Virus genome (UHGV): UHGV-1451962
DNA: 64,000 bases
Source: a virus
Strand: one strand, 5' to 3'
The position numbers and the translations under genes were made by a program. A model generated the notes under the pieces. It was not told where the DNA came from, made no database searches, and worked only from the letters and a program-made list of their open reading frames with translations. This document shows positions 483 to 18,779 of this stretch, piece by piece (the first letter of the stretch is position 1; each line of letters begins with the position of its first letter).

Positions 483-501
483 AGTTAAAGGAGAAAAAGG
501 A

Positions 502-1038
502 ATGAAAAAAAATTTATATGAATTTCCAAAGTCTAGTTTTTTGGGTATGGCCAAAGATACAGCTTTGATTATAAATAAAATTTTAACCAATAAAAATATT
601 TTAAAATTAATTTATTATACTTCTAAAGATTGGAAAGATAAACCTGATTTAAATAGTCAACAAATAAAAGAATTATTTGAAAATAAACAAATATCTAATA
701 TACCTAAGATTACTGTTTTTCCAGATAAAGCTACTTATCTGAGAATTAGTTATGATGATTTTGTTCCGAATGATACTAATCCTTATTATAGAAATCATAT
801 GATAGATATTAAAATTATTTGCCATTATGATTCATGGGATTTAGGAGATTTTGAGTTAAGACCTTATCGCATAGCTGGGGAGTTAGATTCTATTTTAGAT
901 GGACAACATTTAACTGGAATTGGAGAATTACAGTTTCTTAGTGCAGAACAAATTCTCATAGATAATGAATTTGCAGGAATTAATTTAAGATATTGGGCCG
1001 TTAGAGGTAATGAAGATAAGGTTAATCCTTTGAATTAA
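502..1038 (+). CDS. hypothetical protein (virion module)
   Basis: 178-aa ORF; RBS-like aaaggag 7-9 nt upstream of ATG; no recognisable motif. Confidence 0.4.
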   Translation: MKKNLYEFPKSSFLGMAKDTALIINKILTNKNILKLIYYTSKDWKDKPDLNSQQIKELFENKQISNIPKITVFPDKATYLRISYDDFVPNDTNPYYRNHMIDIKIICHYDSWDLGDFELRPYRIAGELDSILDGQHLTGIGELQFLSAEQILIDNEFAGINLRYWAVRGNEDKVNPLN

Positions 1039-1039
1039 T

Positions 1040-1774
1040 ATGGATATTAAATTAGCATTAATGGCAGGTGTAGATATTCCTATACCTGAGTTACAAGCAA
1101 TTATTCATCAACCGCAATTAAAAGAAATTGCGAGGATGGGTGAACAAAATTTTTTTATGGCAATTCATTATTTATGTTTAAATAAAGAAGCTTTGTTAGA
1201 GGACGAAAGTCTTTTACAGAGTTTAACAAATTTTCAAGTATTGATGAAAGTTATTGAACAATCAGAAGATGCTGAGAAGAAAATAGCTTTAATAACTTTA
1301 CTTTCTCTTTTGTTTCCAGGATTTAAACCAATAATTACTCCAAAGAGCATTATTCTTAATAATTTGCAAACAAAACAAAGCATTTTGATAGATGATAATA
1401 ATTATGTTTTTTTACAAGAAATATTAAAACAAATGTTTTGTATAAGTAGTATTTTTCAGGGAGATAATGTTGTTTATAATCCTGCGAATGAAGCTGCAAA
1501 AAAAATTGCCGATAAATTAATGAAAGGCAGAAAAAGAGTTGCAGAATTAAAGGGAAAAAATCAAGAAAGCGTGTTAAGCAGATATGTTTCTATTTTAACG
1601 ATAGGGATTTCCTCTATGTCTTTAGAAAATTGTCTGGCTTTAACAATATATCAACTATTTGATTTAGTTGAAAGATATAATCTGTTTATTGAATGGGATT
1701 TAAATTTGCGGGTTAAACTTGCAGGTGGAGACCCCAAGCAAGATGCGGAAAATTGGATGAAAAACATTCATTAA
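1040..1774 (+). CDS. hypothetical protein (virion module)
   Basis: 244-aa ORF starting 2 nt after the previous stop (translationally coupled layout). Confidence 0.4.
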   Translation: MDIKLALMAGVDIPIPELQAIIHQPQLKEIARMGEQNFFMAIHYLCLNKEALLEDESLLQSLTNFQVLMKVIEQSEDAEKKIALITLLSLLFPGFKPIITPKSIILNNLQTKQSILIDDNNYVFLQEILKQMFCISSIFQGDNVVYNPANEAAKKIADKLMKGRKRVAELKGKNQESVLSRYVSILTIGISSMSLENCLALTIYQLFDLVERYNLFIEWDLNLRVKLAGGDPKQDAENWMKNIH

Positions 1775-1795
1775 TTTATAAGGAGGAAATTAAAC

Positions 1796-2737
1796 ATGAG
1801 ATTTGGTGTACGCGAAATCTGTGATGTTGTGTTGCGTGCTAAAGCAAGACAAACTCTAGGTACTCGTACTTTTTATAAGAATGAGCCTGTTCTTTATTTT
1901 GATACTTTAAAGACTTCTAGCCTAGAAGGTCAAGCTACCACAGTTTATGCTCAAGGCGGACGTGGTAACTCTAGATTAATTGCCTGGGAAGGCGAGAAGA
2001 CTCTTACATTTACAATGGAAGATGCACTGCTTTCTCCTGAAAGTTTTGCAATTCTTTCCGGTGCTGGTTTGATGGATGCTTCTGCGGAAGCCCCTATTTA
2101 TGTTCATACTACTTCTCAAGTGCAGGTTGATGCTCAAGGCAAGTTTACTGTGGATGGTAAAATTTGTTGGAATGGCGGTCGTGCACAAGAAGGAAATAAA
2201 GAAGGAACAAATTATGACTACCATAAAGAAGCAGATGTTTTCTGCATGGCTCTTGATGATGCTGGAGAGGTTAAAGTCGAGCCTTGTGTTCCTGCTTCCA
2301 TGACTTATGATGATACTAAGAAGAAAACTACTATTGTTTGTTATGCTGATGCTGAAGGTGTTGAGAAATTAGCTGAAGGTTCTGTTGTTCTTGTTGATTA
2401 TTATGTTAAGAAGATCGGCAATGCTAAGATGATTGAGATTACTCCTGATGAATTTGCTGGTAGTTATTACCTAGAAGGTTCTACTTTATTCCGTAGAGAG
2501 TCCGATGGTGTTGACATGCCTGCTGAGTTCATCATTCCTAATGGTAAGATTCAGTCTAACTTTACTTTCTCTATGGCAAGTTCTGGCGATCCTTCTACCT
2601 TTACCTTTACTATGGATGCTTTCCCTGGATATACTAAGTTTGATCCTACTAAAAAGGTTCTTGCTGCTATTCAGGTAATTGAAGATAGCACTGGTGAAGA
2701 TACCGCTTACCGCGAGAATTGTAAGGCGACTTTTTAA
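1796..2737 (+). CDS. putative major virion structural protein (capsid or tail-tube class), highly expressed
   Basis: 313-aa ORF with strong RBS (aaggagg) and by-eye GC-richer, biased codon usage (cgt/ggt/ctg) relative to neighbours; position upstream of tail genes. Confidence 0.4.
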   Translation: MRFGVREICDVVLRAKARQTLGTRTFYKNEPVLYFDTLKTSSLEGQATTVYAQGGRGNSRLIAWEGEKTLTFTMEDALLSPESFAILSGAGLMDASAEAPIYVHTTSQVQVDAQGKFTVDGKICWNGGRAQEGNKEGTNYDYHKEADVFCMALDDAGEVKVEPCVPASMTYDDTKKKTTIVCYADAEGVEKLAEGSVVLVDYYVKKIGNAKMIEITPDEFAGSYYLEGSTLFRRESDGVDMPAEFIIPNGKIQSNFTFSMASSGDPSTFTFTMDAFPGYTKFDPTKKVLAAIQVIEDSTGEDTAYRENCKATF

Positions 2738-2877
2738 TTACCCCAAATAGTAACGTTAAAATTAGTCAGCTAGGGAATACCTATTCTTTAGTTGGCACTG
2801 TAGATAAAACTGATATTCCCGTAGAATATCAAGGGCTATTTGGGGATATAGCAACAGAAGATACTTTAAATAAGTAT

Positions 2878-3126
2878 GTGCTTGTTAGATTAAATAATAT
2901 TATTCCTAAAAATGGTGCTACTATTATTCAAAAGAATGAAGCTTTAAAATATTATTATAATAAAGGTGATGTTAATATCACTGAAGTTGGTGGCATTTAT
3001 ACCAAGACTAAGGAATATGATGGAACTGATTCTGATTATGCTTTGTTAATTAAGATTGGTTCTACTGCGGAAGTTACTATTAATGATACTAAATATATTA
3101 TTGATGGTTCTAAATTAACTAATTAA
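2878..3126 (+). CDS. hypothetical small protein
   Basis: 82-aa ORF followed directly by a rho-independent terminator. Confidence 0.3.
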   Translation: MLVRLNNIIPKNGATIIQKNEALKYYYNKGDVNITEVGGIYTKTKEYDGTDSDYALLIKIGSTAEVTINDTKYIIDGSKLTN

Positions 3127-3133
3127 TAAAAAT

Positions 3134-3168
3134 AGGGAAGAGTTTTACTCTTCCCTATTTTTTGTTTT
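3134..3168 (+). terminator. rho-independent terminator
   Basis: 10-bp stem agggaagagt / actcttccct with 3-nt loop followed by attttttgtttt. Confidence 0.6.
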
Positions 3169-3179
3169 AAGGAGAAAAT

Positions 3180-4586
3180 ATGAGTAGTGATTTTGTTTTT
3201 GAATATGATGGAACTAGTTATCCTAATATTCATAGTAAACCTGAACATTATATAGGAGGAACTTTAATTCCTTATGCTCAAACAACAAATAAAATGGCAG
3301 CTATCAAAACAAGATACTTAAATATGATGAAAGCGCAACTCGCCAGCCAACAAACAGATGCTAAAAAGAAAGCTTTTATAGAAGGTATGGAATTAGCAAA
3401 ATTTGAAAAAATGGAAAAACAAATAGAAAATAAAATTGTTGAAGAATATAATAAAGCTGCGAGCAAATTAGGAGGAAATATTGGTGGATATAATATGGGA
3501 GTTGATGGATATGTTGCAGCTTTAAAATCAGGAGATAAAGATGGAGCAATAAAATCATTAGCTCAAATAATAGCTGTTTTTCACCAAAATAAAGATGCTG
3601 TTGCTTTATATGAAATGTTAAAAGATAATCCTCAACAAATTTATTCTGATATTTCTATAAACGAATTAATTAATGTTCAAGCTTTTATGAAAGTTATTGA
3701 AGCTGCTATGAATGGAGAAAATTATCGGAATACTCTAAATTCAATTTTAACTAAACCTTCAGAAGCTTTAGCAGCTTTAATAGGAACATATGCTGAAGCA
3801 AAAAGTGATACAGAAGTAAAAGATTTATTACTTGGTACTCAATCACAAAATATTAGAGTAAGTTTTAGTGGAGAATTTAAAGAAATTCAATCTAAATCCG
3901 CGGATATTAGTTTAGGAAATTCATATTTTTCTTATAATATGGGTGGTTCACAAGGCAGTCAAGGTATTGAGCTTTATGACACTTTTGATGTAGAAACTTT
4001 TGCTACTGTAAAGACTTATAGAACCGCGGGAGGTTTGTCTTTAACAAGTTATTCTGGAAAAAATTCTTTCTTAATTCCAGCTTTACATCAATTGTATGGT
4101 GGTGGAAACTCAATTGATTATCAAATATATAATACTTTAGCTTTTAGTGCAGGGCAAGAATCAGGAGCATTGGATACTAACTTTAGAATTATTCGGCAGG
4201 ATTTAATTGCTAAATTTGCGGAAAACTTTTTAATTGGTTTTAATACGGCTGAAGCACAAAGAGTATTAGTATATAATTTTAGAGCATATCCAGTATTAAC
4301 TATATTAGCTGATATAGTTAATGATGCTAAAAATGCGGTTAGAGAAGGAAATTTATATGGTTCTTTAAGTAGTGGTGATTTATTTAGTATTTCTTTGACT
4401 AAAAGTGCTGTTGATAATAGTTGGGTTGGTCAAAAAGATATAACAAATAAAGCAAATAAAGCTGTTCGTGTAAAAAGAGCTTATAATCAAATTAATAGTA
4501 TTGCAATGCAAGGTCATATTAGTGGTAGATATGTTAGTTCTAATTTAAGAAAATATTTAACAGCGGCGAATGGAATACCTATTTAA
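3180..4586 (+). CDS. virion structural protein (possible major tail or sheath-class protein)
   Basis: 468-aa ORF with strong RBS (aaggag), located between the putative major structural gene and the chaperone-like and tape-measure genes. Confidence 0.4.
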   Translation: MSSDFVFEYDGTSYPNIHSKPEHYIGGTLIPYAQTTNKMAAIKTRYLNMMKAQLASQQTDAKKKAFIEGMELAKFEKMEKQIENKIVEEYNKAASKLGGNIGGYNMGVDGYVAALKSGDKDGAIKSLAQIIAVFHQNKDAVALYEMLKDNPQQIYSDISINELINVQAFMKVIEAAMNGENYRNTLNSILTKPSEALAALIGTYAEAKSDTEVKDLLLGTQSQNIRVSFSGEFKEIQSKSADISLGNSYFSYNMGGSQGSQGIELYDTFDVETFATVKTYRTAGGLSLTSYSGKNSFLIPALHQLYGGGNSIDYQIYNTLAFSAGQESGALDTNFRIIRQDLIAKFAENFLIGFNTAEAQRVLVYNFRAYPVLTILADIVNDAKNAVREGNLYGSLSSGDLFSISLTKSAVDNSWVGQKDITNKANKAVRVKRAYNQINSIAMQGHISGRYVSSNLRKYLTAANGIPI

Positions 4587-4650
4587 AATTTGCTTTTTTG
4601 TTAAATAAGTAGTATAATAAAAATAGAAATGATAAAAAGGAGATTTAAAA

Positions 4651-5199
4651 ATGTCTAAAGTTACTTTTAGTAAAATAAATATGAAAATGAAGATGAAAGA
4701 TGAATATGCGACTATTTATCTTAATCCAGAACTTGATGAGGAATTTAAAGTAGAAGTGCGTCAATATTTACCAATTGAGCAAAAGGCAGCTTTAATTACT
4801 TTTATTGCAGAAAACGCGATTGATGAAAAGACTGGTTGCTTTAGTGAAATTAGAATTGAGACTTATTTTGCTCTTGCTATTGCTAAGTATTATGCAGGAA
4901 TTGCTTTTACTGACAAGCAAATTGAAAATGCTGCTAAAATTTATGATGTATTAGAGAGTAATGGAGTTTTTACTAGAATTATGAGTGCTATTCCTGAATC
5001 TGAGTTTAACTTTTTAACTAATGCCGTTAGTAAAACTATTGCCGATATTGCAAGATTTAATAATTCTTTTGCCGGAATGTTGAATATGATCTCTGATAAT
5101 GCGGGCGGCATGGATGAACAGTTTACTGAAATTTTAGAGAAGATTAAGAATGGTGAAGGTTTAGAGACTCTTTCTGAAATTAAGAATATTGTTGGCTAA
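4651..5199 (+). CDS. putative tail assembly chaperone
   Basis: 182-aa acidic protein immediately upstream of the tape-measure-like gene; assignment is by synteny only. Confidence 0.3.
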   Translation: MSKVTFSKINMKMKMKDEYATIYLNPELDEEFKVEVRQYLPIEQKAALITFIAENAIDEKTGCFSEIRIETYFALAIAKYYAGIAFTDKQIENAAKIYDVLESNGVFTRIMSAIPESEFNFLTNAVSKTIADIARFNNSFAGMLNMISDNAGGMDEQFTEILEKIKNGEGLETLSEIKNIVG

Positions 5200-5250
5200 A
5201 TTAAGATAATATATTTCTAATAAATATTAAAATTTTATAGAGAATTTTTT

Positions 5251-5288
5251 AAAGCTCTGAGAAATTTCTCAGAGCTTTAATTTTTTAT
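5251..5288 (+). terminator. rho-independent terminator
   Basis: Perfect palindrome aaagctctgagaaa/tttctcagagcttt followed by aattttttt. Confidence 0.55.
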
Positions 5289-5316
5289 ATGCACAAAGAG
5301 TGAAAGGAGATTAATT

Positions 5317-8300
5317 ATGGCTAAAAGACTTAATTATGAAGTAGGCTTTACTGGCGATACTTCACAATTAAAAGCGTCTTTAAATGATGCTGTAAAAGCT
5401 TTACAAAAATTAGGTACTTCTTCAACTACTCAAATGACTCAGGGTATGCGGGAAGCATCTAAATCTGCATTAGAATTAGCTAATAATTTAAAAACTGCTA
5501 CTAATCAAGAAACAGGAAAATTAGATTTAGTAACTTTTAATAGAAATTTAGCTAATAGTAAGATGACCATTAGTGATTATGCTAAGCAATTATCTCAATT
5601 AGGCCCTACTGGTCAGCAAGCTTTTATGAAAGTTGCGCAAGCAGTTACTTCTGCGGAATTACCAATGAGACGTACTAATAAAGTATTGGATGAATTGTGG
5701 ACAACAATGAAAAATACTGCTCGTTGGCAATTAACCTCAAGTGCGTTGCATGGATTTATGGGAGCTTTAAATACTTGTGTTGGATATTCTAAAGCTTTAG
5801 ATAAATCTTTAAATTCTATCAGAATTGTTACTGAACAATCAGCTGAACAAATGGCTGATTTTGCAGTTCAAGCTAATAGTGCTGCAAAAAATTTAAGTAC
5901 AACAACAACAGATTATACGGATGCAGCATTGATATATTATCAACAAGGTTTAAATGACAAAGAAGTTCTTGATAGAACTGATATTACTATTAAAATGGCC
6001 AATGCCGCAAATGAAAGTGCTCAAGTAGTTTCTGACCAATTAACTGCGGTTTGGAATAACTTTTATGATGGTTCACAATCATTAGAGCATTATGCTGATG
6101 CGATGGTGGCGTTAGGTGCTGCTACTGCTTCTAGTTCAGATGAAATTGCTGGCGGCTTAGAGAAGTTTGCATCAATCGCAGACATGATTGGGTTAAGCTT
6201 TGATTATGCTGCTTCTGCTTTAGCAACAATTACTGCTACAACTCGTCAAAGCGAAGATGTTGTTGGTACTGCTTTGAAAACTATTTTTGCTCGTATTCAA
6301 GGTTTGAATTTAGGAGAGACCCTTGAAGATGGCACTGATTTAAATAAATATTCAGAAGCTTTGAGCAAAGTTGGTGTTTCAATTAAAGATTCTAATGGCG
6401 ATTTGCGTAATATGGATGCTATCTTAGATGATATAGGCGCAAAATGGGGTACTTTAACAAAAGACCAACAAGTAGCATTAGCGCAAACAGTAGCCGGCGT
6501 TCGTCAATACAACCAGTTAGTTTCTTTAATGGATAATTGGGATTTCTTTGAAGATAATTTAAAGATTGCCCAAAATTCTGAAGGTGAATTAAATAAGCAG
6601 GCTGATATTTATGCAGAATCTTGGGAGGCCGCGAGAAAAAGAGTTAAAGCTGCGGCAGAAGATATTTATGATAGCATTTTGAATCCTGAGAGCATTGTTG
6701 CTATTGATGATGTTTTAACTCCATTTTTAAGTGGAATAGCGCAAGTTGTTAATGCTTTAGGTGGATTAAAAGGTATTGCTTTAGTTGTTGGTTCTGTCCT
6801 TACTTCTGTTTATAGTGGTAAATTGGTAAATGGTTTACAAAATTTTGCTACTAATATTCAGATTATGACTGGACTTCAAGGAAAATTAACAAGAAGCTTA
6901 CAAGAACAAACCGTAACTGAAGCAGAAAATCTTGATATTATAATTGGTGGTAATCGTGCTTTAGAAACTGAAATTTCTTTGATGCGAGAAAAAGTTCAGT
7001 TACAAGGTATGATTAATAAATATACCAAGAATTATGACCAAAGTCAAATGTTACAAGTCAATCAGCGAGTAGGCGTTATTGATGCTTTGCGTCAACAAAT
7101 TATGGCTTCTGCTCAAAAACAAACTGCTTTGTTGGGTGAAGCTGAAGAATTTAAAACAACTATATTGTTAGATATAGAGCCAAAACCTGGTTGGGAAGAA
7201 AGATTTAGACAGAAAATTTTACAATTTAATACTAATATGGTTAATGGGCCATTAAAAAATCTTAATTCTGTCTTTTTATTTGATGAAAAAGATGATATAA
7301 CAAGAACTACTGAAAAAGTTACAGCAAGTATGCAAAAGTTAGCTTCTCAAGCTAGTTCTATAGAAGCAGTAAGACGAGCTTATAGCAATTTAAATATAGA
7401 TCAAAAAGAAAGTGCCGTTGTTTTACAAGAATTAATTCAAAAGACTGGTTTATGGAAAGCAGAAATGCAAAATTGGTCTACTCCTAAATTACAAGAATTT
7501 TTGAATAACTTAGGTACTCAATCAATAGAAGCTTCTAAAGGGATGCAACTTTTAAAACAAGCTTTAATGGAATTAAGTTATTCTCCTGAAGCTATTGATC
7601 AATTTATTAATTCGATAAGAAGATTAGCCGCTGAAGAACATAGTGCCGCAGAATATACAAGATTAATTAATGAAGAAATAAAAAAATTTACGAACAGTTT
7701 GCAAACTGGTAGTATTCAAAGTGAATCGGGTTGGGCAAAAACTGTTGTAAGCATGTCTAATCATCTTATGAATTTCGGAATGACTCTTTCCGCAGTTAGT
7801 AATATGGGTAAAGTTTTCAAAGAATCTATGGAAGGAAATATTACTGCGGGAGAAGCTTTCATTCAAATTATGACTAATTTGGGTATGATTTTGATGAGTG
7901 GCAGTAGCCTTTTCATGGCTTTGTCAAAATCAATGGGTGCTCTTGTTTCAGTTTATACTGGTGTAAATACTTCAGTAGCAGCTCTTACTTTTGTTACAAA
8001 ATTAAATACTGCGGCTGAAGAAGGAAATATAGCTGCAAAAATAGCTAATGTTGCAATTACAAAATTGCTTACTGTTTCAGAAGGTAGTTTAGCTGCTGCT
8101 ATGGGTATAACTATTGGCGTTTTAGCTCTTTTTGCGGCTGGAATTGTGTTTGCTGTAAAAATAATTGATGGTTTAATTGTAACTCAAAAAGAAGCCAGTC
8201 AAGCTATTGCGGATGCTACTCAAAATTATACTGATCAAAAGAGCAAATTAGATGAGTTAAATAGTTCTTTAGAGCAAACTAGACAAAAGATAGAAGAATT

Positions 8301-11300
8301 AGAATCTAAAGATTCTTTATCTCTTGTTGAACAAGATGAGCTAGCTAATTTAAAACAGCAAGAAGCTTCTTTAGAGAGACAAGCTGATCTAAGAGAGCGT
8401 ATAGTTAAAGCTAAACAAGCAGAAATGGCTTATGCTATTGCAGATAATTTTGACAAAAAATATGACAAGACTTATAAGGTAGAGCCAAAAGGTAGAACTG
8501 GTGCTGACACTTCTAATTTTAAAACACAAGAAGATTTAGATAAATGGTATAATAGTTTAAATTCTGACCAACAGGCAAAAGCATTAGACCAATATCAGAA
8601 TTGGACGCAACAGATAGCAGAAGCTACTGCTCAAATGACTTCTGAAGTAGGAGAAGATTTAGCTGAATTAGAACAAGACTATGCTAATTATTTAGGTGCT
8701 GTTGATTCTGGAGCAATTGTGGCCGATCCGTCTAAGATTGCAGATATGCAGGATAAATTAGCAGAATTAAGAAAATTAATATATCCTACTGATAATCAGT
8801 ATTATGAAATGGTTATCCGTCCGGTATTAGATGATGAATCTTTTGATGAAGTAAGAGATAAGATTTTTAGAGCTTTATCTTCTGGAGATATTAAAGGTGC
8901 TGGATTAGCCTTAACAGATGAAATGCGTTCTGCCATTGAAGCTGCTGGAATTTCTGTTGATGATTTATTTAATCAAATTGCAGAAAGAATGTCTCAGGCC
9001 AGAGAGACCATTAAATCTGAAATGGGCGGTACCGAAGAGCAATTAAATAAATTAACTGCCGAAGATTGGGATATTATTCTTACCTTGGATTTAGAAAACA
9101 TTGGTTCTTTTAGAGAATTAATGAAAGCTATTGAAAATGCTAAAAATACAGACCTTAAAGTTAAAGTAGATACTTCTGAGTTAGATGCAGCAAAAGATAA
9201 AATAGAAAGTTTAAATACTAATGAAGAGCCATTGGAAAAAGCCTTGATGTCTTATAAAGAACAAGGTTATCTTACTATGGATCAGACTTATGAATTAATT
9301 AAAGCTAACGAAGAATATGCTCAATATATTAAAAAAGTTGGAGATGAGTATGTTTTAACTACTCAATCTTTAACTGACTTTACTGAAATGGAAAAAGCTG
9401 AGAAATTGGCTTTAGACCAAGCTATTGAAGCTATGCAAAACAAAGGTAAAGTTGATAGAGATTATGCTCAGCAGTATGTTGATCTTTATAGTAGTTTAAT
9501 TGAAAGTAGTAAAAATTGGTCTGACCAAGAACGTGCAGATAGCGGAGAAAATTTTGATAAAAATACTGAAGCACTTAGAAGACAAGCTCAAGCGTTCCAA
9601 GAAGGAAAGATTAGCGCAAGTGAATATTTTGATGCAATAAATCAAAGAGTTAGTGAAACTGGGGATAATTTTGCAAAATTAAGTGATGGTATAGATGGTC
9701 TTAAAGAATCTGATTATGCAAAAACTATGATTTCCTCTACTACTGCTTTGGCTGATGGTTTTAAAGATTTAATCAGTGAAGTTGAAGCTGGCGGTACTAA
9801 TATGCAAGAGTATTATGCTGGTGCAGTTAAAGGTACTAAAGCTTTAATGAATATCACTGCTAAATCTAATAAATATATCACCAAAACAGCAGATGGTTAT
9901 AAAGTTGTTACTGATAATATTGATGATGCAACTAAAGCTACACAAGACTACAAAGATGCTCAGAAAAAAGTTCAAAATTTAAATACTTGGGAAAAACAAG
10001 TTGATCAAGCTGAAGGATTTAAAAAAGCAATAGATGATATTACTTCTTATTATGATTATTTAAAAAATTATTTAAATGATAATAATTGGCTTGAGTTACC
10101 TGATAATTTTGATACAACAACAACCAAATTTAAAAATATGTGCGATACTATGGCTGCTGATATTTGGTCTTTAAAAGATACAAATGCTGAAGCTTTTAGT
10201 GCGATTATGGCTCACATGGAAACTGAAAATGCTGGTTTTGATTCTAGTTTAATTACTTCTCAAAGTCAATTAGCTAGTGCTATGCAAGGAAATGCAACAA
10301 TAGCTTCTTCTGCTATTAATGGTCTAGCTGCTCAAAGTCAGATTAGTATTGGTACTTTATGTCAAATTGGTGGACAGTTATTACAATCTTTGGCAAGTGC
10401 TATTAGCAGTTTTAGTTATACTATTCAGGCGACTGGTGTTGTTGATAATCCTGGTGGTATTGGTTTAGGCGGAGGATTAGTCGATAAAATTGGTGCTTTA
10501 CTTACAACAGGAGGGAAAATTCCTTTTGAATGGGATATGCCTTCTGCCCATATTGATTTAACAGGTTCTGGTTCTGGTGGTTCACCTATGTTTAGCACTA
10601 CTGGTTCTGCAAGAGCGCAAAAAGTTAATGGCTCTGGTAAATCAAATTATATTCGTTCAAAAGACACTGGTGCTGCTAGCAAAGGTGAGTCATCAGGACT
10701 TTTAGAAAATATTTCTAAATTTGGTACTGCATTAGAAGAATATGGTAAACAATCTGTATTGTCTCAAGGTTTAAAAGCATTTGCCCCTTCAGGAGGAGGA
10801 ACTGGTGGTAGAACTCTTAACCCTAGTGGTATTTCTACTGATAACAATCGTCCTTCTGGTGGAGGAGGAGGAAAAGGCAAAGGTGGTAAAGGAAAAGGCG
10901 GAGGTGGTAAAGGAAAGGGAGGAAAAGGAAAAGGCGGAGGTGGTGGCTCCGGCTCAGATGATTCTCCTGAAATCGAAGATGAAGAAATTTTTGATGATAG
11001 ATACCACGATATTAATAATAGACTAGAAGAACAAAGTCAGCTACTAGATAAGATTGATACTGCTAAAGATAGAGCTTTTGGTGTTAAGAAATTAGAAAAA
11101 TATAAAGAAAAAATTGAAGCAATTAATAAAGAACAAGAATTATATAAAGAAAAATTAAAAAAGACTGAGGAATATTTAAAAGAAGATTTAACTGATTTAC
11201 AAAAGAACTTTTCTGGTGTTAAATTAAATATAGACTCTGATAGTAAAGCTTTATTAAATTATGAAGATTTAGAAAAATGGGCAATAGAAGAATATAATAA

Positions 11301-13932
11301 AGTAGTAAGAAAATATAATGCTTTAGGTTCTAAGACCGCGCAGGAATCTTTTAAAGATACTCTTGATGCTGCAAAGAAAACACTTGATTTAAGAAAAGAA
11401 ATTCTAGAGCAGTATGAAAATGATCAAAAGCAAAGAGTTGAACTTTTAGAAAATATTGCTGAAGAGGCTAGAAAGAAATTTAATGAAAAATTAAGTAGTA
11501 TTAATGCTGTTATAGAAGTTAAATTAAAGATTAAAGATTTTAAAGATACTAATAGAGAAATAGGTAAAAATGTTGTTGAAGCTTTTGGCGATGCTGTTAA
11601 TTGGGGCAAAAAACCTGGACAAATTGATTTCTTTGGTATGCAAGATAACTTAGCTAAAGCTAAAGACTTAGAAGAACATATGAATCAAATATTTAATCTT
11701 ATGTCTGAGTCTGAAGATAGTGCTGATTTTGAAAGTGTTATAGATTCTTTAGAAGATTTACATGGTAATATTGCTGATACTGTTTCTGATTTAAAAGATT
11801 GGTTAGAAAATCTTAGAGAGTATTTAACTGATGTTATTGATGCAGCAGCTGACAGATTTGCACAATTTACTGATCAATTAGACCATAATGGTACTGTATT
11901 AGATTCAGTAAAAGAATTATTAGATTTACAAGGAATAACTTATAAAACTGGTAAGAATTTTGAACTTTTACAGAAAACTATTCAAGGAAGATTGGAAACA
12001 GCTACTTCTACTGCCAAATTACAAAAGCAATGGATGGAAAAAGCTGCGGAACAATTAGCGGAAGCAGAAAAAGCTTTGGCAGGAGTTACTGAAGAAGATG
12101 CAGCTTATGATACTCTTAAAAATAATCGTGATGCTTTATTAAAACAATTTAATGAATCTCAAGAAGCTATGTTAGATGCAGCTAAAGAAGCTATGGAAAC
12201 GGCAAGAGAGTATTATACTAATGCTATTGAGAAAGCTGCTTATGATTTTGAGCAAGCTATTAGTGGCGGAATGGGTTTAGAATTATTGCAGCAAAAATAT
12301 GATAATTTAATTAGTAAAGAAGAAAGATATTTAGATAAAGTTAATGAAACATATGAAGTAAGTAAATGGAATAGACAACTTCAAAAAGCAATAGATGAAG
12401 AAACTAATGAAGCTTCTAAGAATAGATTAAAAACATTACAAAAAGAAATTGAAGTAAGACGTGAAGGTAATAAATTATCTAAATATGATTTGGATATTTT
12501 AGAAGCAAAATATCAAATGACTCTTGCTCAAAATGCTTTGGATGAAGCTCAAAATGCTAAAAATTCAGTGCGGTTAGTCCGCAATGAATCCGGCAACTGG
12601 GATTATCAATTTACAGCTGATCAGTCTAAAATTGATGAAGCTACACAAAAGTATGAAGATGCGGCAAATAACTATTACAATATAGCAAAAGACCAAGTTA
12701 AAAATATGATGGATGAAATTCTGCGATTAAAACAAGATACTTTAGACCAAATTAAAGATGTTTATGAAGATGAAAGTTTAACTGAGGAAGAACGTGGAGA
12801 AAAGATTGCAGAAATTCGTAGAAATGCAAATGATAAAATCCTTTATATTCAGCAAGAATATCAAGTATCTTTAGAAGATATGACAGATGCAGGTGGAGAG
12901 ATAATTACAGAATATGGAAATACTTATAATGATGTAATGAAAATTATGGAAATGGGTACTTCTGACTTTACTGCATATTTTGAAACTGCTCTTGATGAAA
13001 TGGAAAATGCTGCTGATAATTACAATAGCACTATGGAAGAAGTCACTGGGACTACTGGTTCAAATGTAGATGCTTTAAAACAAATTATTGATGATACTAC
13101 CAAATCTACTCAAGATTTAACTACTGCGGGTACTCAAGCCGCAGATGCTGTTTGGAAGAAAATTGAAGAAGTTCGCCAAGCTTCAGAGCAATGGTCTAAT
13201 TATGCAGCGTGTGTACGTCAAGCATTAGATACTTTGTATGAAATGTCTAACTTTGTAACTACTAGAACAGTTGCCGCTTCTGTTGGTGATATGAAAGGGT
13301 ATAATTCTAATATTGACTATTCTTCTGTTATGAATGATTATTTAAGCCAAGGTGGACAAGTTGGAGATGAAATATTTAAGAGTTTAGAATATCAAAGATA
13401 TTTGAAAATTCTTGGAGAAAATTTTGAACAAGGTAAACAGTATATTTATTCTAATGAAGATTATTATAATAAGCAAAATGATCCAGAGTTTCAGAAATGG
13501 CTAAAAGATAATGGCGGAACTGGCAAATATGAGGATTTTGTTAAGAGTCATACAATAGGTTACGCAACAGGAGGCTATACTGGTTCTTTTGATAATGAAG
13601 ATGGTAAATTAGCATTTTTACATGAGAAAGAATTAGTTTTAAATCAAGAGGATACTGAAAATATTCTTTCTGCGGTTTCCGCGGTTAGAACATTAGGGCC
13701 TAATTTGTTTAAACAAATAGAAAGAATTTTGGATAATAATATAATGGCAGGGCAAAATTTATTAAATGCTCGTATGGCTAGTTCTACTACTGTTTCTAGT
13801 GATGGGCAAATAGTTGAACAGATAGTGCATATTCAAGCTGATTTCCCTGGTGTATCCAGTGCAGCAGAAATCGAAGCAGCTCTTAATAATATTGTTAATG
13901 ATGCGGCTCAATATGCTAGTATTAGAAAATAA
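5317..13932 (+). CDS. tail tape measure protein (giant, 2871 aa)
   Basis: Very long ORF with strong RBS; long coiled-coil-like Ala/Gln/Lys/Glu-rich stretches, internal hydrophobic membrane-like segments, and a Gly-Lys low-complexity repeat; lies between the chaperone-like ORF and the large tail or baseplate genes. Confidence 0.55.
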   Translation: MAKRLNYEVGFTGDTSQLKASLNDAVKALQKLGTSSTTQMTQGMREASKSALELANNLKTATNQETGKLDLVTFNRNLANSKMTISDYAKQLSQLGPTGQQAFMKVAQAVTSAELPMRRTNKVLDELWTTMKNTARWQLTSSALHGFMGALNTCVGYSKALDKSLNSIRIVTEQSAEQMADFAVQANSAAKNLSTTTTDYTDAALIYYQQGLNDKEVLDRTDITIKMANAANESAQVVSDQLTAVWNNFYDGSQSLEHYADAMVALGAATASSSDEIAGGLEKFASIADMIGLSFDYAASALATITATTRQSEDVVGTALKTIFARIQGLNLGETLEDGTDLNKYSEALSKVGVSIKDSNGDLRNMDAILDDIGAKWGTLTKDQQVALAQTVAGVRQYNQLVSLMDNWDFFEDNLKIAQNSEGELNKQADIYAESWEAARKRVKAAAEDIYDSILNPESIVAIDDVLTPFLSGIAQVVNALGGLKGIALVVGSVLTSVYSGKLVNGLQNFATNIQIMTGLQGKLTRSLQEQTVTEAENLDIIIGGNRALETEISLMREKVQLQGMINKYTKNYDQSQMLQVNQRVGVIDALRQQIMASAQKQTALLGEAEEFKTTILLDIEPKPGWEERFRQKILQFNTNMVNGPLKNLNSVFLFDEKDDITRTTEKVTASMQKLASQASSIEAVRRAYSNLNIDQKESAVVLQELIQKTGLWKAEMQNWSTPKLQEFLNNLGTQSIEASKGMQLLKQALMELSYSPEAIDQFINSIRRLAAEEHSAAEYTRLINEEIKKFTNSLQTGSIQSESGWAKTVVSMSNHLMNFGMTLSAVSNMGKVFKESMEGNITAGEAFIQIMTNLGMILMSGSSLFMALSKSMGALVSVYTGVNTSVAALTFVTKLNTAAEEGNIAAKIANVAITKLLTVSEGSLAAAMGITIGVLALFAAGIVFAVKIIDGLIVTQKEASQAIADATQNYTDQKSKLDELNSSLEQTRQKIEELESKDSLSLVEQDELANLKQQEASLERQADLRERIVKAKQAEMAYAIADNFDKKYDKTYKVEPKGRTGADTSNFKTQEDLDKWYNSLNSDQQAKALDQYQNWTQQIAEATAQMTSEVGEDLAELEQDYANYLGAVDSGAIVADPSKIADMQDKLAELRKLIYPTDNQYYEMVIRPVLDDESFDEVRDKIFRALSSGDIKGAGLALTDEMRSAIEAAGISVDDLFNQIAERMSQARETIKSEMGGTEEQLNKLTAEDWDIILTLDLENIGSFRELMKAIENAKNTDLKVKVDTSELDAAKDKIESLNTNEEPLEKALMSYKEQGYLTMDQTYELIKANEEYAQYIKKVGDEYVLTTQSLTDFTEMEKAEKLALDQAIEAMQNKGKVDRDYAQQYVDLYSSLIESSKNWSDQERADSGENFDKNTEALRRQAQAFQEGKISASEYFDAINQRVSETGDNFAKLSDGIDGLKESDYAKTMISSTTALADGFKDLISEVEAGGTNMQEYYAGAVKGTKALMNITAKSNKYITKTADGYKVVTDNIDDATKATQDYKDAQKKVQNLNTWEKQVDQAEGFKKAIDDITSYYDYLKNYLNDNNWLELPDNFDTTTTKFKNMCDTMAADIWSLKDTNAEAFSAIMAHMETENAGFDSSLITSQSQLASAMQGNATIASSAINGLAAQSQISIGTLCQIGGQLLQSLASAISSFSYTIQATGVVDNPGGIGLGGGLVDKIGALLTTGGKIPFEWDMPSAHIDLTGSGSGGSPMFSTTGSARAQKVNGSGKSNYIRSKDTGAASKGESSGLLENISKFGTALEEYGKQSVLSQGLKAFAPSGGGTGGRTLNPSGISTDNNRPSGGGGGKGKGGKGKGGGGKGKGGKGKGGGGGSGSDDSPEIEDEEIFDDRYHDINNRLEEQSQLLDKIDTAKDRAFGVKKLEKYKEKIEAINKEQELYKEKLKKTEEYLKEDLTDLQKNFSGVKLNIDSDSKALLNYEDLEKWAIEEYNKVVRKYNALGSKTAQESFKDTLDAAKKTLDLRKEILEQYENDQKQRVELLENIAEEARKKFNEKLSSINAVIEVKLKIKDFKDTNREIGKNVVEAFGDAVNWGKKPGQIDFFGMQDNLAKAKDLEEHMNQIFNLMSESEDSADFESVIDSLEDLHGNIADTVSDLKDWLENLREYLTDVIDAAADRFAQFTDQLDHNGTVLDSVKELLDLQGITYKTGKNFELLQKTIQGRLETATSTAKLQKQWMEKAAEQLAEAEKALAGVTEEDAAYDTLKNNRDALLKQFNESQEAMLDAAKEAMETAREYYTNAIEKAAYDFEQAISGGMGLELLQQKYDNLISKEERYLDKVNETYEVSKWNRQLQKAIDEETNEASKNRLKTLQKEIEVRREGNKLSKYDLDILEAKYQMTLAQNALDEAQNAKNSVRLVRNESGNWDYQFTADQSKIDEATQKYEDAANNYYNIAKDQVKNMMDEILRLKQDTLDQIKDVYEDESLTEEERGEKIAEIRRNANDKILYIQQEYQVSLEDMTDAGGEIITEYGNTYNDVMKIMEMGTSDFTAYFETALDEMENAADNYNSTMEEVTGTTGSNVDALKQIIDDTTKSTQDLTTAGTQAADAVWKKIEEVRQASEQWSNYAACVRQALDTLYEMSNFVTTRTVAASVGDMKGYNSNIDYSSVMNDYLSQGGQVGDEIFKSLEYQRYLKILGENFEQGKQYIYSNEDYYNKQNDPEFQKWLKDNGGTGKYEDFVKSHTIGYATGGYTGSFDNEDGKLAFLHEKELVLNQEDTENILSAVSAVRTLGPNLFKQIERILDNNIMAGQNLLNARMASSTTVSSDGQIVEQIVHIQADFPGVSSAAEIEAALNNIVNDAAQYASIRK
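10858..10950 (+). repeat. Gly-Lys low-complexity coding repeat inside the tape-measure gene
   Basis: Encodes GGGGGKGKGGKGKGGGGKGKGGKGKGGGGGSGS; DNA shows near-tandem copies of aaaggaaaaggcggaggtggt. Confidence 0.7.
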
Positions 13933-13935
13933 TTT

Positions 13936-13968
13936 AAAGGGGAGAATTTTTCTCCCCTTTATTTTTTT
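13936..13968 (+). terminator. rho-independent terminator
   Basis: Stem aaaggggagaa / ttctccccttt followed by atttttttg, immediately after the tape-measure stop codon. Confidence 0.6.
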
Positions 13969-13986
13969 GAGAGAAAGGAGTTTATA

Positions 13987-16900
13987 ATGAATAATATATC
14001 AGAGCAAATTCTTCAAGCAGCTGATATTTTAGCGCAAAAAAGATTATCCGAATTAAAATATGATATAACAGTTCAAGGCACTGTTGAGTCTTTAGTTAAT
14101 TTAAATACTGGTGAATATAAAGTTAAATATAATGGTAATATATTTTCTGCTTTTAGTAATGATTTAAAAACTACTTATAGAATTGGAGATAATATTTATA
14201 TAAAAATTCCAGAAGGAGATTTTTCTAATAAAAAATTAATTGAAAATAAAGTTACTGATAAGTCTTTAACTGAAAATAATTTAAATGAGCTAGAAAATTC
14301 TGTTTCTCCTGTTGGGCCTACTTTTGATGTTTTTTATAATTATGACAAAATAAAAGAATATGGGGTAGTTGCAGGAGCACCCAAAGATGATAAATTGTCT
14401 ATTACAGAGATTTTCAACAGAGAAACTGTAAGTAATTTTTCCGATATTCCTTTTTTACAATATGCTAATAAATATGAATATATTAAAATTCAGGCCGATT
14501 TTTTAACACTCTTTAGTGATATTCATTCTGAGGGAAATTATGGCTTAGAATTGGCATTTTCATCTAATGGAGAAGATGTTTTTTATAGACTTGATGTTTC
14601 AAATTTTAATGGTAGTCCTTATTCTTTTAATACTTATAGCACGCAATCAGTTACTGTAAAAATACAAACAAAATTTTTAACTGGTTTAAAAAGTATTAAG
14701 TTATTTGAAGAAGGATTTCAATACGATAAATATTTATCTAATGGTGAATATATTTATTTAGATAAAGCAACAGGCAAAGAATTAATACATGATAATGAAA
14801 CCAATGAATATTATTATTTAAATGATAATAATGAAAAAATAATTGTAAATCAAGAGAATAGAATAGAAAAAATAAATGATAAATCACCGAATATTTTTGT
14901 TAAAAATATTCAAGTACAGTATGTAGAAGTAAAAAATTTAATAGACAATCTATATTATTTAAGAATTAAAACACCTAATGGTCAAATGTTTACAGACCAA
15001 ATAGATGAAATTACTTTACAAGGACAATTAATTTACAATGGCAATTCAGTTTTAACAGAAAAGAATAGTACCTGTTATTGGTATGAAAGAGATTATTCTG
15101 TGATGATAGGTGATGAGGCCTATGATAAAAATGTTGGTTTTGGATGGCGACCAATTTCCGCAAATTTTGATACTCTTGTTTTAAAAGATGAAGATGTGGT
15201 ATATAAAAAAGTATTAAAATTAATGGTAGTTTATTCTGATAATGTTGTAATGTCTGAAGAGATAGTTATTAGTAATTATAATACTGATTATAATTGTTGG
15301 CTAGAGCAATTAACTGTTGGAGATACTATTGATTTACATATTAAAAATAATAGAGATGAAGATGAATTAGTCGGTGATTGGTATTTATCTTTACCTGATG
15401 GAAGTTATCAAGAGGTACCTAATGGTAAACAAAAATCTGAAATAGAAGTTAAGCAATATCTTTTATATTCTGCTGTAACTTTTTATTGTAGTATTTATGA
15501 TAAAGATAGAAAAAATATTATTGCCACTGAAGAATATACAATCACTAATACTGAATCACAAGAAGATTTAAGTATAAAGTATATTGGAGAAGATTCTTTT
15601 AGATATGATTCTAATGGTGATATTACTATTGAGGATTCTGAAAAAGAACGTACTATTGAATGTCAATTTGCCTGGAAAGATGGAGTCGGCACTTCTTATG
15701 ATATGACATGGTATAGTCCAGATGGGAGTTTATTAACAACAGGTGAAAGAGTTAATCCTGTTGATTCAATGATAGAAAATCTCTGGGTTGACAAATATAA
15801 TATTTTGCATTATACTATTAAACAGAAGTATAAAATAAATTTTAACAATAATACTATTCAAATTAAAGTTACTACTTTAGACCAAAAGGAATATATTTTT
15901 AATAAAGAAATTCTTTTTGTTAAAGATGGTGATCAAGGTACTAATGGTACTACTTATATCGCAGCTATTCGTCCTTGTGATGATAATGGTATTAAATTAA
16001 GTGGTTTACAGCCTTTGGTTTTTAATCCTTTAACCAAAGAGCTTTTAGATGAACAAGAAAGGATTAGAAATGATAATACTCTTTCTAATGAAGAAAAAAT
16101 AAAACAAATTTTAGAAGTTAGAAAAAGAGGATGGAATACTTTAAAGTTAAGAGTGTATGTTTATAAAGATGGAGAATTAATCAATAATTTAAATGGTAAT
16201 AAATATACTATTAAATATGAATGGTCTGGGACAAATATAAAATTACCTGAAGCAGAAACTGATGATGAATATATTAGCATTTCCGGCAATAGTGATCCAG
16301 TTATAAACTTTTATTCTACTTCTGATAAATATGAATTTTATATAAAAATTAAAATAACTGTTAGAGAAAAAGCAGGAGATTCTACTGTTTATCTTTATTC
16401 TATTTATCCTATTGATGTTGCAGTTAATGGTTTTGAATATAATAGAGTTGACATAAATGAAATTCCTTCTTATATTAAATATAATTCTTCTGGTTTAAAT
16501 CCTTCTTTTTATAGTAATGCTTTAAAATATACTTTTGATGAAATAGATCAAACTAAATTAGTAGAATCATTAAATAAAGATATTTTAGTAATTGAAGATA
16601 AACAACAAAAGGAATCTGAAATTATAGATAGATATTTAGTACCTTCTTCTAATTTTATTTTTGAAAGAGATTCAGATAAAAATAATAGTAGTATTGGTAT
16701 TTTAAAATGCCCCGACCCGCAATATAATACTAGATATTTATTACACTCTATTGTTATGTATCTTGATACATATGGCAATGAAGCTATTAATGGCTGGGAT
16801 GGAACACAGTTAGATATAGATAACAAAGGCCAATATGTTTTTGCCCCGCAGGTTGGTGCAGGTACTAAAAATGAACAAAATCAATTTACCGGCGTTGTTA

Positions 16901-18306
16901 TGGGTAAAGATAGCGGGCAGAAAAAAATTGGTTTATATGGTTATCAAAATGGTATTACTACTTTTGGTTTAATGCAAGATGGTTCTGCATTTTTTGGTGC
17001 TTCTACTAGCGGAAGAATTAATATTGATGGAACAAAAGCAAATATTTATGGCGGTTTAACAGAAAATGGCGCAAATAGTATGAAATTAACTTTATCTGAT
17101 ATGCGGATGACTGGTAGTACAAAAGCTATTAATATTAATGATTCAAAAGGTGAATCTGCTTTTTATGTAACTTATAATGGTTATATGTATGCTAATAATG
17201 TTAAAATAAAAGGTAATGTTGAAGCAACCACTTTAACAGCAACTAAAAGCGGCAAGATAGCTGATTTTACTATTGATTCAACTGGATTAAGAGGAGGTTC
17301 AATTACTTGTAGAAATTTAGTTGCTAACACTGATGGAGAAATTGCTGGTTGGAAAATTACTGGGCAAAGTTTAAAAAGTCCTAACGCTTCAGTAAATCAG
17401 CCTTCTGAGGCGGGAGGAGTGCCAACTTGGACAGGCACTACTTTAAATAGTAGTGGACAAATTTATACTCAGAAATTATATGCAAGTGGTGGAGATATTG
17501 GTGGCTGGCAGATTAATTCTACTAATTTATACGGAAGTGCTGAAGGAAAATTTCAAAGTATTACTTATGATGATGAAGGTAATATGAGTGTATCTGAAAT
17601 AACAGGTATTAAATTTACTGAATTACAAAAAGGCGGCCAGATTAAAACCAATACAGTACAAATTTTTAGTGATCCACAAGCTGAAGGACAAATAGGGAAT
17701 TATATTGGATATATGGGTCTTGTCTACGGAAGCACTACCAGTAAAGATACTACATATAACATAGGTATATATAGTCTTACTGGTGCTCGTCTTGAAGCTA
17801 AAGGAGATATAGCAATAGCCGCAGGAAAAGGTAGTATTTGGATGCATGGTAATATAATGGCGAGAAAAGGTTTTTATTGTGGAAATAGTTCTAATATTGA
17901 TAATTTAGATAAAAAATTTCTTGTTGAAAATAGAATTATTAGACTGGGTGCAGAGACAGATGCTGACCAATTGTATATTAGAAGTTCTTGGTTAGTTTTA
18001 AAAGATGATGGAATGTCTATTAAAAAGCCTACAACAATTACAAAAGATGTAACAATTTCTGCTAATCAAAAATTAAGTTTGTCTGGAAATGGTTATATTT
18101 CAACTCCAACTATACAGACTGATAAAATTCAACCAGTGGGTAAAGAGACTGGTACAATAACAGTGAGTGGAACTATGAGCGGTAGTTTTAAGGGTAGTCT
18201 TTCTACATCAAGTGGTTATTATTATAATAGTAGTGGAGCTTACACAAAACTTTTAGCAGGTAGTATAATAGATGATAGTATTAAAGTTTTTGCTAAATTT
18301 TCGTGA
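13987..18306 (+). CDS. large tail or baseplate structural protein (1439 aa)
   Basis: Long ORF with RBS (aaaggag) directly downstream of the tape-measure gene; Gly/Thr/Ser-rich beta-like C-terminal region typical of tail tip or fibre proteins. Confidence 0.45.
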   Translation: MNNISEQILQAADILAQKRLSELKYDITVQGTVESLVNLNTGEYKVKYNGNIFSAFSNDLKTTYRIGDNIYIKIPEGDFSNKKLIENKVTDKSLTENNLNELENSVSPVGPTFDVFYNYDKIKEYGVVAGAPKDDKLSITEIFNRETVSNFSDIPFLQYANKYEYIKIQADFLTLFSDIHSEGNYGLELAFSSNGEDVFYRLDVSNFNGSPYSFNTYSTQSVTVKIQTKFLTGLKSIKLFEEGFQYDKYLSNGEYIYLDKATGKELIHDNETNEYYYLNDNNEKIIVNQENRIEKINDKSPNIFVKNIQVQYVEVKNLIDNLYYLRIKTPNGQMFTDQIDEITLQGQLIYNGNSVLTEKNSTCYWYERDYSVMIGDEAYDKNVGFGWRPISANFDTLVLKDEDVVYKKVLKLMVVYSDNVVMSEEIVISNYNTDYNCWLEQLTVGDTIDLHIKNNRDEDELVGDWYLSLPDGSYQEVPNGKQKSEIEVKQYLLYSAVTFYCSIYDKDRKNIIATEEYTITNTESQEDLSIKYIGEDSFRYDSNGDITIEDSEKERTIECQFAWKDGVGTSYDMTWYSPDGSLLTTGERVNPVDSMIENLWVDKYNILHYTIKQKYKINFNNNTIQIKVTTLDQKEYIFNKEILFVKDGDQGTNGTTYIAAIRPCDDNGIKLSGLQPLVFNPLTKELLDEQERIRNDNTLSNEEKIKQILEVRKRGWNTLKLRVYVYKDGELINNLNGNKYTIKYEWSGTNIKLPEAETDDEYISISGNSDPVINFYSTSDKYEFYIKIKITVREKAGDSTVYLYSIYPIDVAVNGFEYNRVDINEIPSYIKYNSSGLNPSFYSNALKYTFDEIDQTKLVESLNKDILVIEDKQQKESEIIDRYLVPSSNFIFERDSDKNNSSIGILKCPDPQYNTRYLLHSIVMYLDTYGNEAINGWDGTQLDIDNKGQYVFAPQVGAGTKNEQNQFTGVVMGKDSGQKKIGLYGYQNGITTFGLMQDGSAFFGASTSGRINIDGTKANIYGGLTENGANSMKLTLSDMRMTGSTKAININDSKGESAFYVTYNGYMYANNVKIKGNVEATTLTATKSGKIADFTIDSTGLRGGSITCRNLVANTDGEIAGWKITGQSLKSPNASVNQPSEAGGVPTWTGTTLNSSGQIYTQKLYASGGDIGGWQINSTNLYGSAEGKFQSITYDDEGNMSVSEITGIKFTELQKGGQIKTNTVQIFSDPQAEGQIGNYIGYMGLVYGSTTSKDTTYNIGIYSLTGARLEAKGDIAIAAGKGSIWMHGNIMARKGFYCGNSSNIDNLDKKFLVENRIIRLGAETDADQLYIRSSWLVLKDDGMSIKKPTTITKDVTISANQKLSLSGNGYISTPTIQTDKIQPVGKETGTITVSGTMSGSFKGSLSTSSGYYYNSSGAYTKLLAGSIIDDSIKVFAKFS

Positions 18307-18324
18307 GAAAAAGGAGATAATAAA

Positions 18325-18684
18325 ATGACATTATTAAATGATGAAATTTATGGTTTATATGAAGCATTATATGAATTAAAAGAAAAAAATGAAATTTCTT
18401 TACCAGTTACTTTAGCTTATCAATTAGTTAGAAATATGCAAAAGTTAGAACCTTTGTATATGGCTATTGAAGAAGCTAGAAGAAATTTATTTAAAGTTTA
18501 TGTAGATGAAAATGATATTATACCAACTAATAAAATGAATGAAGTAAATCAAAAGCTTAGAGAATTAGGAATGATAAAAGAAGAGCTTGATTTATATATG
18601 GTTAGATTAAAGGATATATCATATATTAATTTACCTATTGATATTGTAAGAAAATTAATGCCAATTATTAAAGAGGACGATTAA
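18325..18684 (+). CDS. hypothetical protein
   Basis: 119-aa ORF with RBS (aaaaggag); stop codon sits inside a terminator hairpin. Confidence 0.4.
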   Translation: MTLLNDEIYGLYEALYELKEKNEISLPVTLAYQLVRNMQKLEPLYMAIEEARRNLFKVYVDENDIIPTNKMNEVNQKLRELGMIKEELDLYMVRLKDISYINLPIDIVRKLMPIIKEDD

Positions 18685-18704
18685 TCGTCCTCTTTTTCTT
18701 TTTA
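18671..18704 (+). terminator. rho-independent terminator
   Basis: Perfect palindrome aagaggacgatt/aatcgtcctctt followed by tttctttttatt. Confidence 0.6.
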
Positions 18705-18779
18705 TTGGACAAGGATAGTTCATATTTTAAATTAAAAAATTAAAATAAATAGATAAATGAGATAAAGGAGTGTGATTTT

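Follow-up and report, generated by a model that had tools for sequence, protein, structure and literature searches.

Most siphovirus tails are 50–200 nm long, and the record, about 1 μm, is held by phage P74-26 (PMC10034513). In the Bacillus phage Tsamsa a tape measure protein (TMP) of ~3000 residues goes with a very long tail (PMC3903500), and for the uncultured phAss-1 group the authors see in the long TMP a typical mark of siphovirus morphology (PMC10607447). Here we analyze a 64,000-nucleotide stretch of UHGV virus genome UHGV-1451962 (the window) and, within it, a gene at positions 5,317 to 13,932 whose 2871-residue product an earlier note, made from the letters alone, had read as an exceptionally long tape measure. 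The closest described systems, with their TMP lengths and the tail lengths reported, are the following.

Lactococcal 949 group, LW81: TMP of 3213 aa; tails of 480 nm (phiL47) and 500 nm (949) (PMC3888941).
Tsamsa: TMP of 3123 aa; tail of 440 nm (PMC3903500).
Kirov: TMP of 3055 aa.
phAss-1 group: TMPs of 3149–3209 aa; uncultured (PMC10607447).
Enterococcus phage VRE9_2: TMP of 2673 aa.
SPbeta-like phage Goe12, YomI: 2298 aa; SPbeta tail of 320 nm (PMC8270828).

The protein encoded in the window is a further member of this already known group of long-tailed siphovirus TMPs, of typical length and without the muralytic inserts of some relatives. We put at roughly 0.9 the probability that its gene encodes the tail TMP of a large, low-GC gut siphovirus (~137 kb) with a tail module of the SPbeta/Tsamsa/lactococcal-949/Enterococcus VRE9 type. 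The elements of the gene that carry this assignment are given here.

5317..13932, + strand: TMP gene, 2871 aa, 317 kDa, pI 4.7; open reading frame (ORF) with PF10145, TIGR01760 and PHROGs TMP matches.
5303..5309, + strand: ribosome-binding site AAAGGAG, 7 nt 5' of the TMP ATG, read directly from the DNA.
5758..6669, + strand: conserved TP901-type core, aa 148-451 (PF10145, aa 188-394), from Pfam and NCBIfam; the part most conserved across clades.
13561..13929, + strand: conserved C-terminal end, aa 2749-2871, with the motif YATGGYTG...KLAFLHEKELVLN, largely invariant across clades.

Both curated TMP models match far above their cut-offs: PF10145 (PhageMin_Tail) finds the N-terminal region at E=1.5e-27 (97.2 bits against 33.2), and TIGR01760 (tape_meas_TP901, NCBIfam) matches at E=1.2e-31 (110 bits against 28.8). 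Ten PHROG families annotated 'tail length tape measure protein' also match, and three of the ten profiles span 2249–2675 positions, indicating that very long TMPs have been catalogued before. The core aligns with TMPs of SPbeta-like, 949-group, Kirov and Enterococcus phages. At the other end of the protein, the C-terminal motif (ATGGYTG...LAFLH.KEL.LN) is 43% identical over 89 aa to YomI of Goe12, and the same end matches the TMPs of VRE9_2 and Kirov. These family matches, the motif shared with YomI and the place of the gene in a conserved order of tail genes support the identification as a tape measure made in the earlier note. Curated families leave 80% of the length unmatched, and PHROG and family searches of the ORFs of the tail module gave no second TMP candidate.

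The ORF runs on the + strand from the ATG at 5317 to a stop codon ending at 13932, with no internal stops, in a window of ~30% GC that is 94% coding under the standard code and whose 54 ORFs end in TAA (46), TGA (7) or TAG (1). Independent contigs carry seven full-length orthologues (88–97% identity, 2854–2865 aa), a shorter one (2624 aa) and, at 39% identity and 100% coverage, more than 100 homologues of 2832–2892 aa, on contigs of up to 149 kb. Because full-length orthologues recur on so many independent contigs, an assembly or fusion artefact is ruled out. Internal duplication was also considered as the origin of the length and rejected: self-BLAST found none and block-versus-block HHalign probabilities were ≤1.3%, so the length was not made by recent repeats. 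At the DNA level, Megablast of 25 kb found no related phage among those deposited.

An exhaustive, profile-free search with the C-terminal 992 residues returned 1087 protein clusters (50% identity) at E≤1e-30. Among the best 150 of these 1087, the 138 full-length proteins have a median of 2852 aa and a 5th–95th percentile range of 2479–3215 aa, and the longest has 4255 aa; the 2871 aa of the window protein therefore sit at the median. Thus the description 'exceptionally long' stands against phages in general but fails within the family, where cultured relatives have TMPs of 3055–3213 aa. In the sister clade (39% identity), total TMP length lies within ~1% of that in the window, and the comparison shows offsetting indels, with ~80 residues lost in aa 1715-1870 and 55 gained at aa 2527. 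This constancy of length, with its compensating changes, fits selection on overall TMP length.

The predicted tail follows the same comparison. The imaged relatives give 0.140–0.149 nm per residue (for phiL47, with the TMP length of LW81 substituted to represent the group), and by extrapolation the phage would have a tail of ~400–430 nm, normal for its group and in agreement with the ~400 nm previously estimated at ~0.15 nm per residue. The rule that protein length sets tail length has indirect support from the conserved TMP length and from the proportionality among relatives. A literature search found no published morphology for the Enterococcus VRE9-type relatives. Thermus phage P74-26 follows the same ruler principle, with a tail of nearly 1 μm (PMC10034513), but its lineage and host are unrelated, and 400 nm is far below that record.

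Comparison with individual phages shows how the architecture is shared out among them. The closest cultured counterpart is found in Enterococcus phages VRE9_2, EF1 and H1, whose TMPs have a PF10145 core close to the N-terminus (aa 200-411) and no other Pfam domain. In VRE9_2 the tail tube protein is 41% identical, the chaperone-like gene at the same position is 32% identical, and both the N- and C-terminal regions of the TMP match; however, this TMP is ~200 aa shorter, and its hydrophobic and Gly-rich segments fall below our thresholds. Tsamsa and Kirov resemble the window as large-genome Firmicutes siphoviruses with a ~30% identical tube, a PF10145 core, C-terminal similarity and a TMP of ~3000 aa, but TMP identity is only ~25%, in the core. 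In Kirov that core starts near aa 680 (aa 190 in the window), an SH3_3 domain lies near the C-terminus, and there is no Gly-rich block. The 949 group (949, phiL47, LW81) shares a ~29% identical tube, the PF10145 core and a very long TMP with stretches rich in Gly in its distal third, whereas the LW81 TMP also holds an SLT transglycosylase domain (aa 2383-2469) between those stretches (aa 2314-2377 and 2495-2557) and a C-terminal LysM domain. The likeness to SPbeta lies in the SPbeta-named Pfam families of the module (the YomU tube, YomW, YomV, YomX, YomO, YonB and YonD). YomI of Goe12 is 22% identical in the PF10145 core; unlike the window protein, it is ~570 aa shorter and has an SLT domain (aa 1425-1533) and a peptidase M23 domain (aa 1579-1674), which lie at 62–73% of its length.

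The phAss-1 group consists, like the lineage studied here, of uncultured human-gut phages (~136 kb) with a long TMP; homology to this TMP extends over core, distal rod and C-terminus (~25–32% identity in patches), and the post-TMP gene of the group is homologous as well. In that group, TAG is recoded to Gln, the TMP gene included. In contrast, in-frame TAG is absent from the window TMP gene and from its 90% relative on contig L003, and TAG serves as a stop in one of the 54 ORFs of the window (38889..39395, − strand). The sister-clade TMP gene (contig L004, 10001-18679) has 33 in-frame TAG codons, translated as Gln in the database, and so shows the TAG recoding (code 15) also known from phAss-1. 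This tail module is therefore common to phages with the standard code and to recoded ones.

The anatomy of the protein between its two conserved ends is as follows.

6694..6828, + strand: hydrophobic segment 1, aa 460-504, ~70 aa past the PF10145 core (Kyte-Doolittle).
7867..8187, + strand: hydrophobic segments 2 and 3, aa 851-869 and 920-957 (Kyte-Doolittle).
8194..10416, + strand: helical rod 1, ~aa 960-1700, charged and proline-poor; periodic in 49% of spans (aa 960-1640).
10414..10986, + strand: Gly-rich block, ~aa 1700-1890, predicted disordered (glycine 20–32%, AlphaFold2 pLDDT <40).
10858..10947, + strand: Gly-Lys tract, aa 1848-1877, a purine-rich 36-nt tandem repeat in 2.2 copies.
10984..13236, + strand: helical rod 2, ~aa 1890-2640, beginning at a conserved DRYH motif; periodic in 72% of spans.

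Hydrophobic segments were called by the Kyte-Doolittle method over 19 aa, and helical character by amphipathic periodicity of 3.4–3.75 residues in 56-aa spans, relative to the 95th percentile of shuffled controls. The hydrophobic segments announced in the earlier note are present, the strongest stretch being aa 929-947 (mean 2.45), but they are not central, since they lie in the first third. They occupy conserved relative positions in most TMP relatives; segment 1 has its equivalent in the TMPs of Goe12 (YomI), LW81, Kirov and the sister clade. The coiled-coil-like regions that had been proposed are recovered by the periodicity statistic, with 42% of spans across the protein exceeding the shuffled percentile, and by the scarcity of proline (27 of 2871 residues, 0.9%; a single one in the 750 aa of rod 2). 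A short helical region also precedes the core at the N-terminus, while no span is periodic in the Gly-rich block or in the last 230 residues. AlphaFold2, run on aa 2600-2871 and aa 1550-1950 with 11-sequence alignments, gave mean pLDDT values of 42 and 44, with mainly helix, at low confidence, outside the Gly-rich block and pLDDT of up to 82 in the helices at aa 1551-1697 of rod 1.

The earlier note had suggested that extra domains, such as lysozyme or peptidase inserts, might be embedded in the protein. A domain search detected none by Pfam, NCBIfam, PDB sequence search or AlphaFold2. Pfam returned only PF10145 for the whole TMP and nothing above cut-off for seven overlapping segments searched at E≤1, the weaker matches being coiled-coil or low-complexity noise; NCBIfam returned only the TMP core, and the PDB sequence search only low-complexity noise. 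In these three sequence searches we found no SLT, M23, LysM, SH3 or other hydrolase or binding domain in the TMP of the window. The same Pfam search detected SLT and M23 in YomI, SLT and LysM in LW81, and SH3_3 in Kirov, indicating that the method is able to see such inserts.

The embedded Gly-Lys block reported from the sequence was found again, at aa 1848-1877 inside the Gly-rich region of aa ~1700-1890. The block lies at 59–66% of TMP length and contains nothing recognisable, with no family match even at E≤1, and most insertions and deletions that separate the clades fall within it. The site of the Gly-Lys tract is constant, whereas its length ranges from 16 to 32 aa in the close clade, where the copy in the window is the longest, and from 5 to 29 aa in the sister clade. 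This variation fits replication slippage in the 36-nt repeat, with tract length apparently unconstrained, and is consistent with the abundance of polyG tracts reported for TMPs (PMC13585406). By comparison with relatives, the block probably acts as a linker at the point where they hold an insert. A more speculative and rather unlikely extension is that the block with its variable tract is a conserved 'cassette site' or hinge of giant TMPs, at which relatives would place a cell-wall hydrolase between Gly-rich linkers and this lineage would have lost one or never gained it, and where the protein might be cleaved into pieces of ~200 and 113 kDa, as the two bands of the Tsamsa TMP hint. If this were true, the tract, with its positive charge, could touch DNA or the lumen of the tube, and the tail could be fine-tuned by slippage in the 36-nt repeat.

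A related proposal is that the TMP works in two parts, the Gly-rich block being a processing or hinge site between a ~201-kDa N-terminal and a ~113-kDa C-terminal piece with distinct roles, for example a ruler with membrane segments and a tip-proximal rod. The computed masses on either side of the Gly-Lys tract (201 and 113 kDa) invite comparison with Tsamsa, whose TMP runs as bands of 280 and 100 kDa (PMC3903500), but the authors of that study ascribe the bands, which are unmapped, to instability or modification (PMC3903500), and the Tsamsa-like Kirov has no comparable Gly-rich block. The predicted disorder of the block and the separate conservation of the C-terminal ~990 aa, a module that starts right past the tract in hundreds of homologues, also speak for such a division; however, we identified no protease or cleavage motif. 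We consider a two-part TMP unlikely, and cleavage would in any case leave its ruler function unchanged.

The reading of the gene as a siphovirus tape measure draws further on its neighbors.

1796..2737, + strand: tail tube protein, 313 aa (phrog_2729; YomU_Tube on orthologous contigs).
4651..5199, + strand: probable tail assembly chaperone, 182 aa, directly 5' of the TMP gene (phrog_30570).
5249..5280, + strand: terminator-like hairpin with T-run in the gap between the chaperone-like gene and the TMP gene, 14-pair stem (hairpin scan).
13935..13961, + strand: terminator-like hairpin with T-run directly past the TMP stop, 12-pair stem (hairpin scan).
13987..18306, + strand: large tail-tip protein, 1439 aa, the first gene after the TMP gene.

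The order tube, chaperone-like gene, TMP gene and 1439-aa tip gene is the same on orthologous contigs, and the longer series of YomW-like, YomV-like, tube, chaperone-like, TMP and tail protein genes is kept in VRE9_2, LW81 and Kirov. Searches with the 313-aa protein found homologues in Bacillus phages Izhevsk, Kirov and KoopaTroopa that bear the annotation tail tube or major tail protein, and also structural proteins of the lactococcal 949 group, Enterococcus VRE9 and H1, Brevibacillus phage Sundance and Clostridium phage D-1873; these homologues belong to phages imaged as long-tailed siphoviruses or to close relatives of such phages. Precomputed Pfam matches upstream of the TMP gene on orthologous contigs comprise YonD_N, YonB, YomX_C, YomW, YomV_2nd, YomU_Tube and a weak YomO. 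Of these, PF27173 (YomU_Tube) falls on a 64%-identical protein on L004 and on a gene of the same length in the same slot on L003, the latter being a match of slot only. The position of the 182-aa gene makes it a probable tail assembly chaperone, and the gene in its slot on L003 is a weak YomO match. The tip protein has a syntenic counterpart of 42% identity in the sister clade and a homologue in the phAss-1 gene next after the TMP, and its N-terminus matches the 'tail protein' encoded behind the VRE9_2 TMP; the tip protein has no Pfam, PHROG or PDB match, and the PDB sequence search gave no relative of the tube protein either.

On the + strand, the tail-tip genes occupy 13987-26243 and encode proteins of 1439, 119, 908, 631, 202 and 729 aa, with phrog_30026, phrog_32343 and phrog_1887 as their only family matches; PHROG and Pfam searches detected no cell-wall hydrolase domain in them. 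Terminator-like hairpins with stems of 11–16 bp followed by a T-run lie between the tail genes on the + strand (3128-3162, 5249-5280, 13935-13961 and 18670-18695), and the region holds 14 such sites, compared with 6.2 ± 2.4 in shuffles. These hairpins, two of which bracket the TMP gene, may be attenuators by which the ratio of tube protein to TMP is set. A 468-aa ORF (3180..4586, + strand), placed between the genes for the tube and the chaperone-like protein, has no significant PHROG, Pfam or NCBIfam match, and an unrelated 502-aa gene fills its slot in the sister clade. The presence of unrelated genes there indicates a variable cargo or decoration position within an otherwise conserved module.

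A contractile-tailed (myovirus-type) phage would use the same length rule with a sheath added, and its TMP could look much like this one, since PF10145 TMPs occur in myoviruses too. The unassigned 468-aa ORF might then be thought to fill the role of the sheath gene, but its conservation already fails in the sister clade, and a sheath gene would normally stand ahead of the tube gene, where here we find genes of 178 and 244 aa. No ORF in 1..27000 matched a tail sheath family in PHROGs, Pfam or NCBIfam, and the precomputed Pfam matches on orthologous contigs included none. The YomU-type tube, moreover, is common to SPbeta, Tsamsa-like and 949-group phages, whose tails microscopy shows to be non-contractile. 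Together, these observations make a contractile tail very improbable. The notion of a giant virion protein that is internal or ejected and has no part in controlling tail length, which the earlier note kept as an alternative and which recalls some ejection proteins in its size, low-complexity content and largely unmatched length, can practically be dismissed, given TMP models matched above curated thresholds, a gene in the TMP slot of a conserved tail module with no competing candidate, and N- and C-terminal regions that match annotated TMPs of cultured phages.

Several points weigh against the reading of the gene as a siphovirus tape measure or temper what is drawn from it. YomU_Tube and the related Pfam assignments are precomputed matches to proteins of orthologous contigs, not of the window; the homology was therefore checked independently, through the relatives of the tube protein, the gene order and the TMP C-terminus. 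A search of overlapping ORFs of at least 20 aa in the other frames found no G/GT frameshift extension of the 182-aa gene; its assignment as a chaperone therefore rests on position and weak matches. An upstream G/GT frameshift chaperone pair is common but not universal. Both AlphaFold2 models are of low confidence, and a small, possibly degenerate domain may be present at the fold level. The tail length is extrapolated from relatives and predicted here from genes alone, and the nm-per-residue factor is perhaps not uniform along a protein with ~190 disordered residues and a final 230 without helical periodicity.

Family membership, gene order, composition, conserved length, a polymorphic linker and the lack of detectable enzyme domains are observed directly. 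From them, and from what is established for lambda gpH, T5 pb2 and the TP901-1 TMP, we propose how the protein would act as a siphovirus tape measure. A few TMP copies, probably a trimer, would be kept extended and mostly α-helical by the upstream chaperone-like protein, with the C-terminal end anchored in a tail-tip complex made by the downstream genes. The 313-aa tube protein would then polymerize round the TMP up to its N-terminal end, giving the predicted tail of ~400–430 nm; at ~4 nm per ring, this would correspond to ~100 hexameric rings and ~600 tube subunits. Upon infection the TMP would be expelled first, and its hydrophobic regions (aa 460-504 and 851-957) would be the likely membrane-inserting part that opens the path for DNA. 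The Gly-rich block and its Gly-Lys tract would provide a flexible, slippage-prone linker, free of domains where SPbeta-like and 949-group TMPs hold hydrolases. Oligomeric state, tail length, membrane insertion and the role of the chaperone are thus all inferred.

Two further observations concern the phage as a whole. Among 185,579 species-representative genomes, the only match was a 1388-bp contig (L010, CAYUWC010000095.1) binned with an uncultured Oscillospiraceae metagenome-assembled genome and encoding a TMP N-terminus 65% identical to that of the window. This is a weak hint of an Oscillospiraceae host, possibly a binning artefact and too weak for a host assignment. In addition, the − strand at 28051-32154 carries what looks like a diversity-generating retroelement, a probable assignment made from its sequence features. 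A reverse transcriptase ORF (28051..29307, − strand; phrog_1423, E=3e-75) accompanies a 108-nt repeat pair of 80% identity, the template repeat at 29586-29693 and the variable repeat at 30384-30491, with nearly all mismatches at adenines of the non-coding copy. It is the 3' end of a 594-aa ORF (30370..32154; phrog_37900) that contains the variable repeat.

The significance of these results goes little beyond annotation. They assign an abundant gut phage lineage of ~137 kb, as yet uncultured, by its tail module to the SPbeta/Tsamsa/949 supergroup of very long-tailed siphoviruses. Its enzyme-less Gly-rich block stands in contrast to the muralytic inserts of relatives. The predicted tail of ~400–430 nm would help to spot its virions by microscopy. 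The family, with more than 1000 clusters, forms a natural data set on the constancy of tail length, in which length is kept at low sequence identity and indels offset each other.

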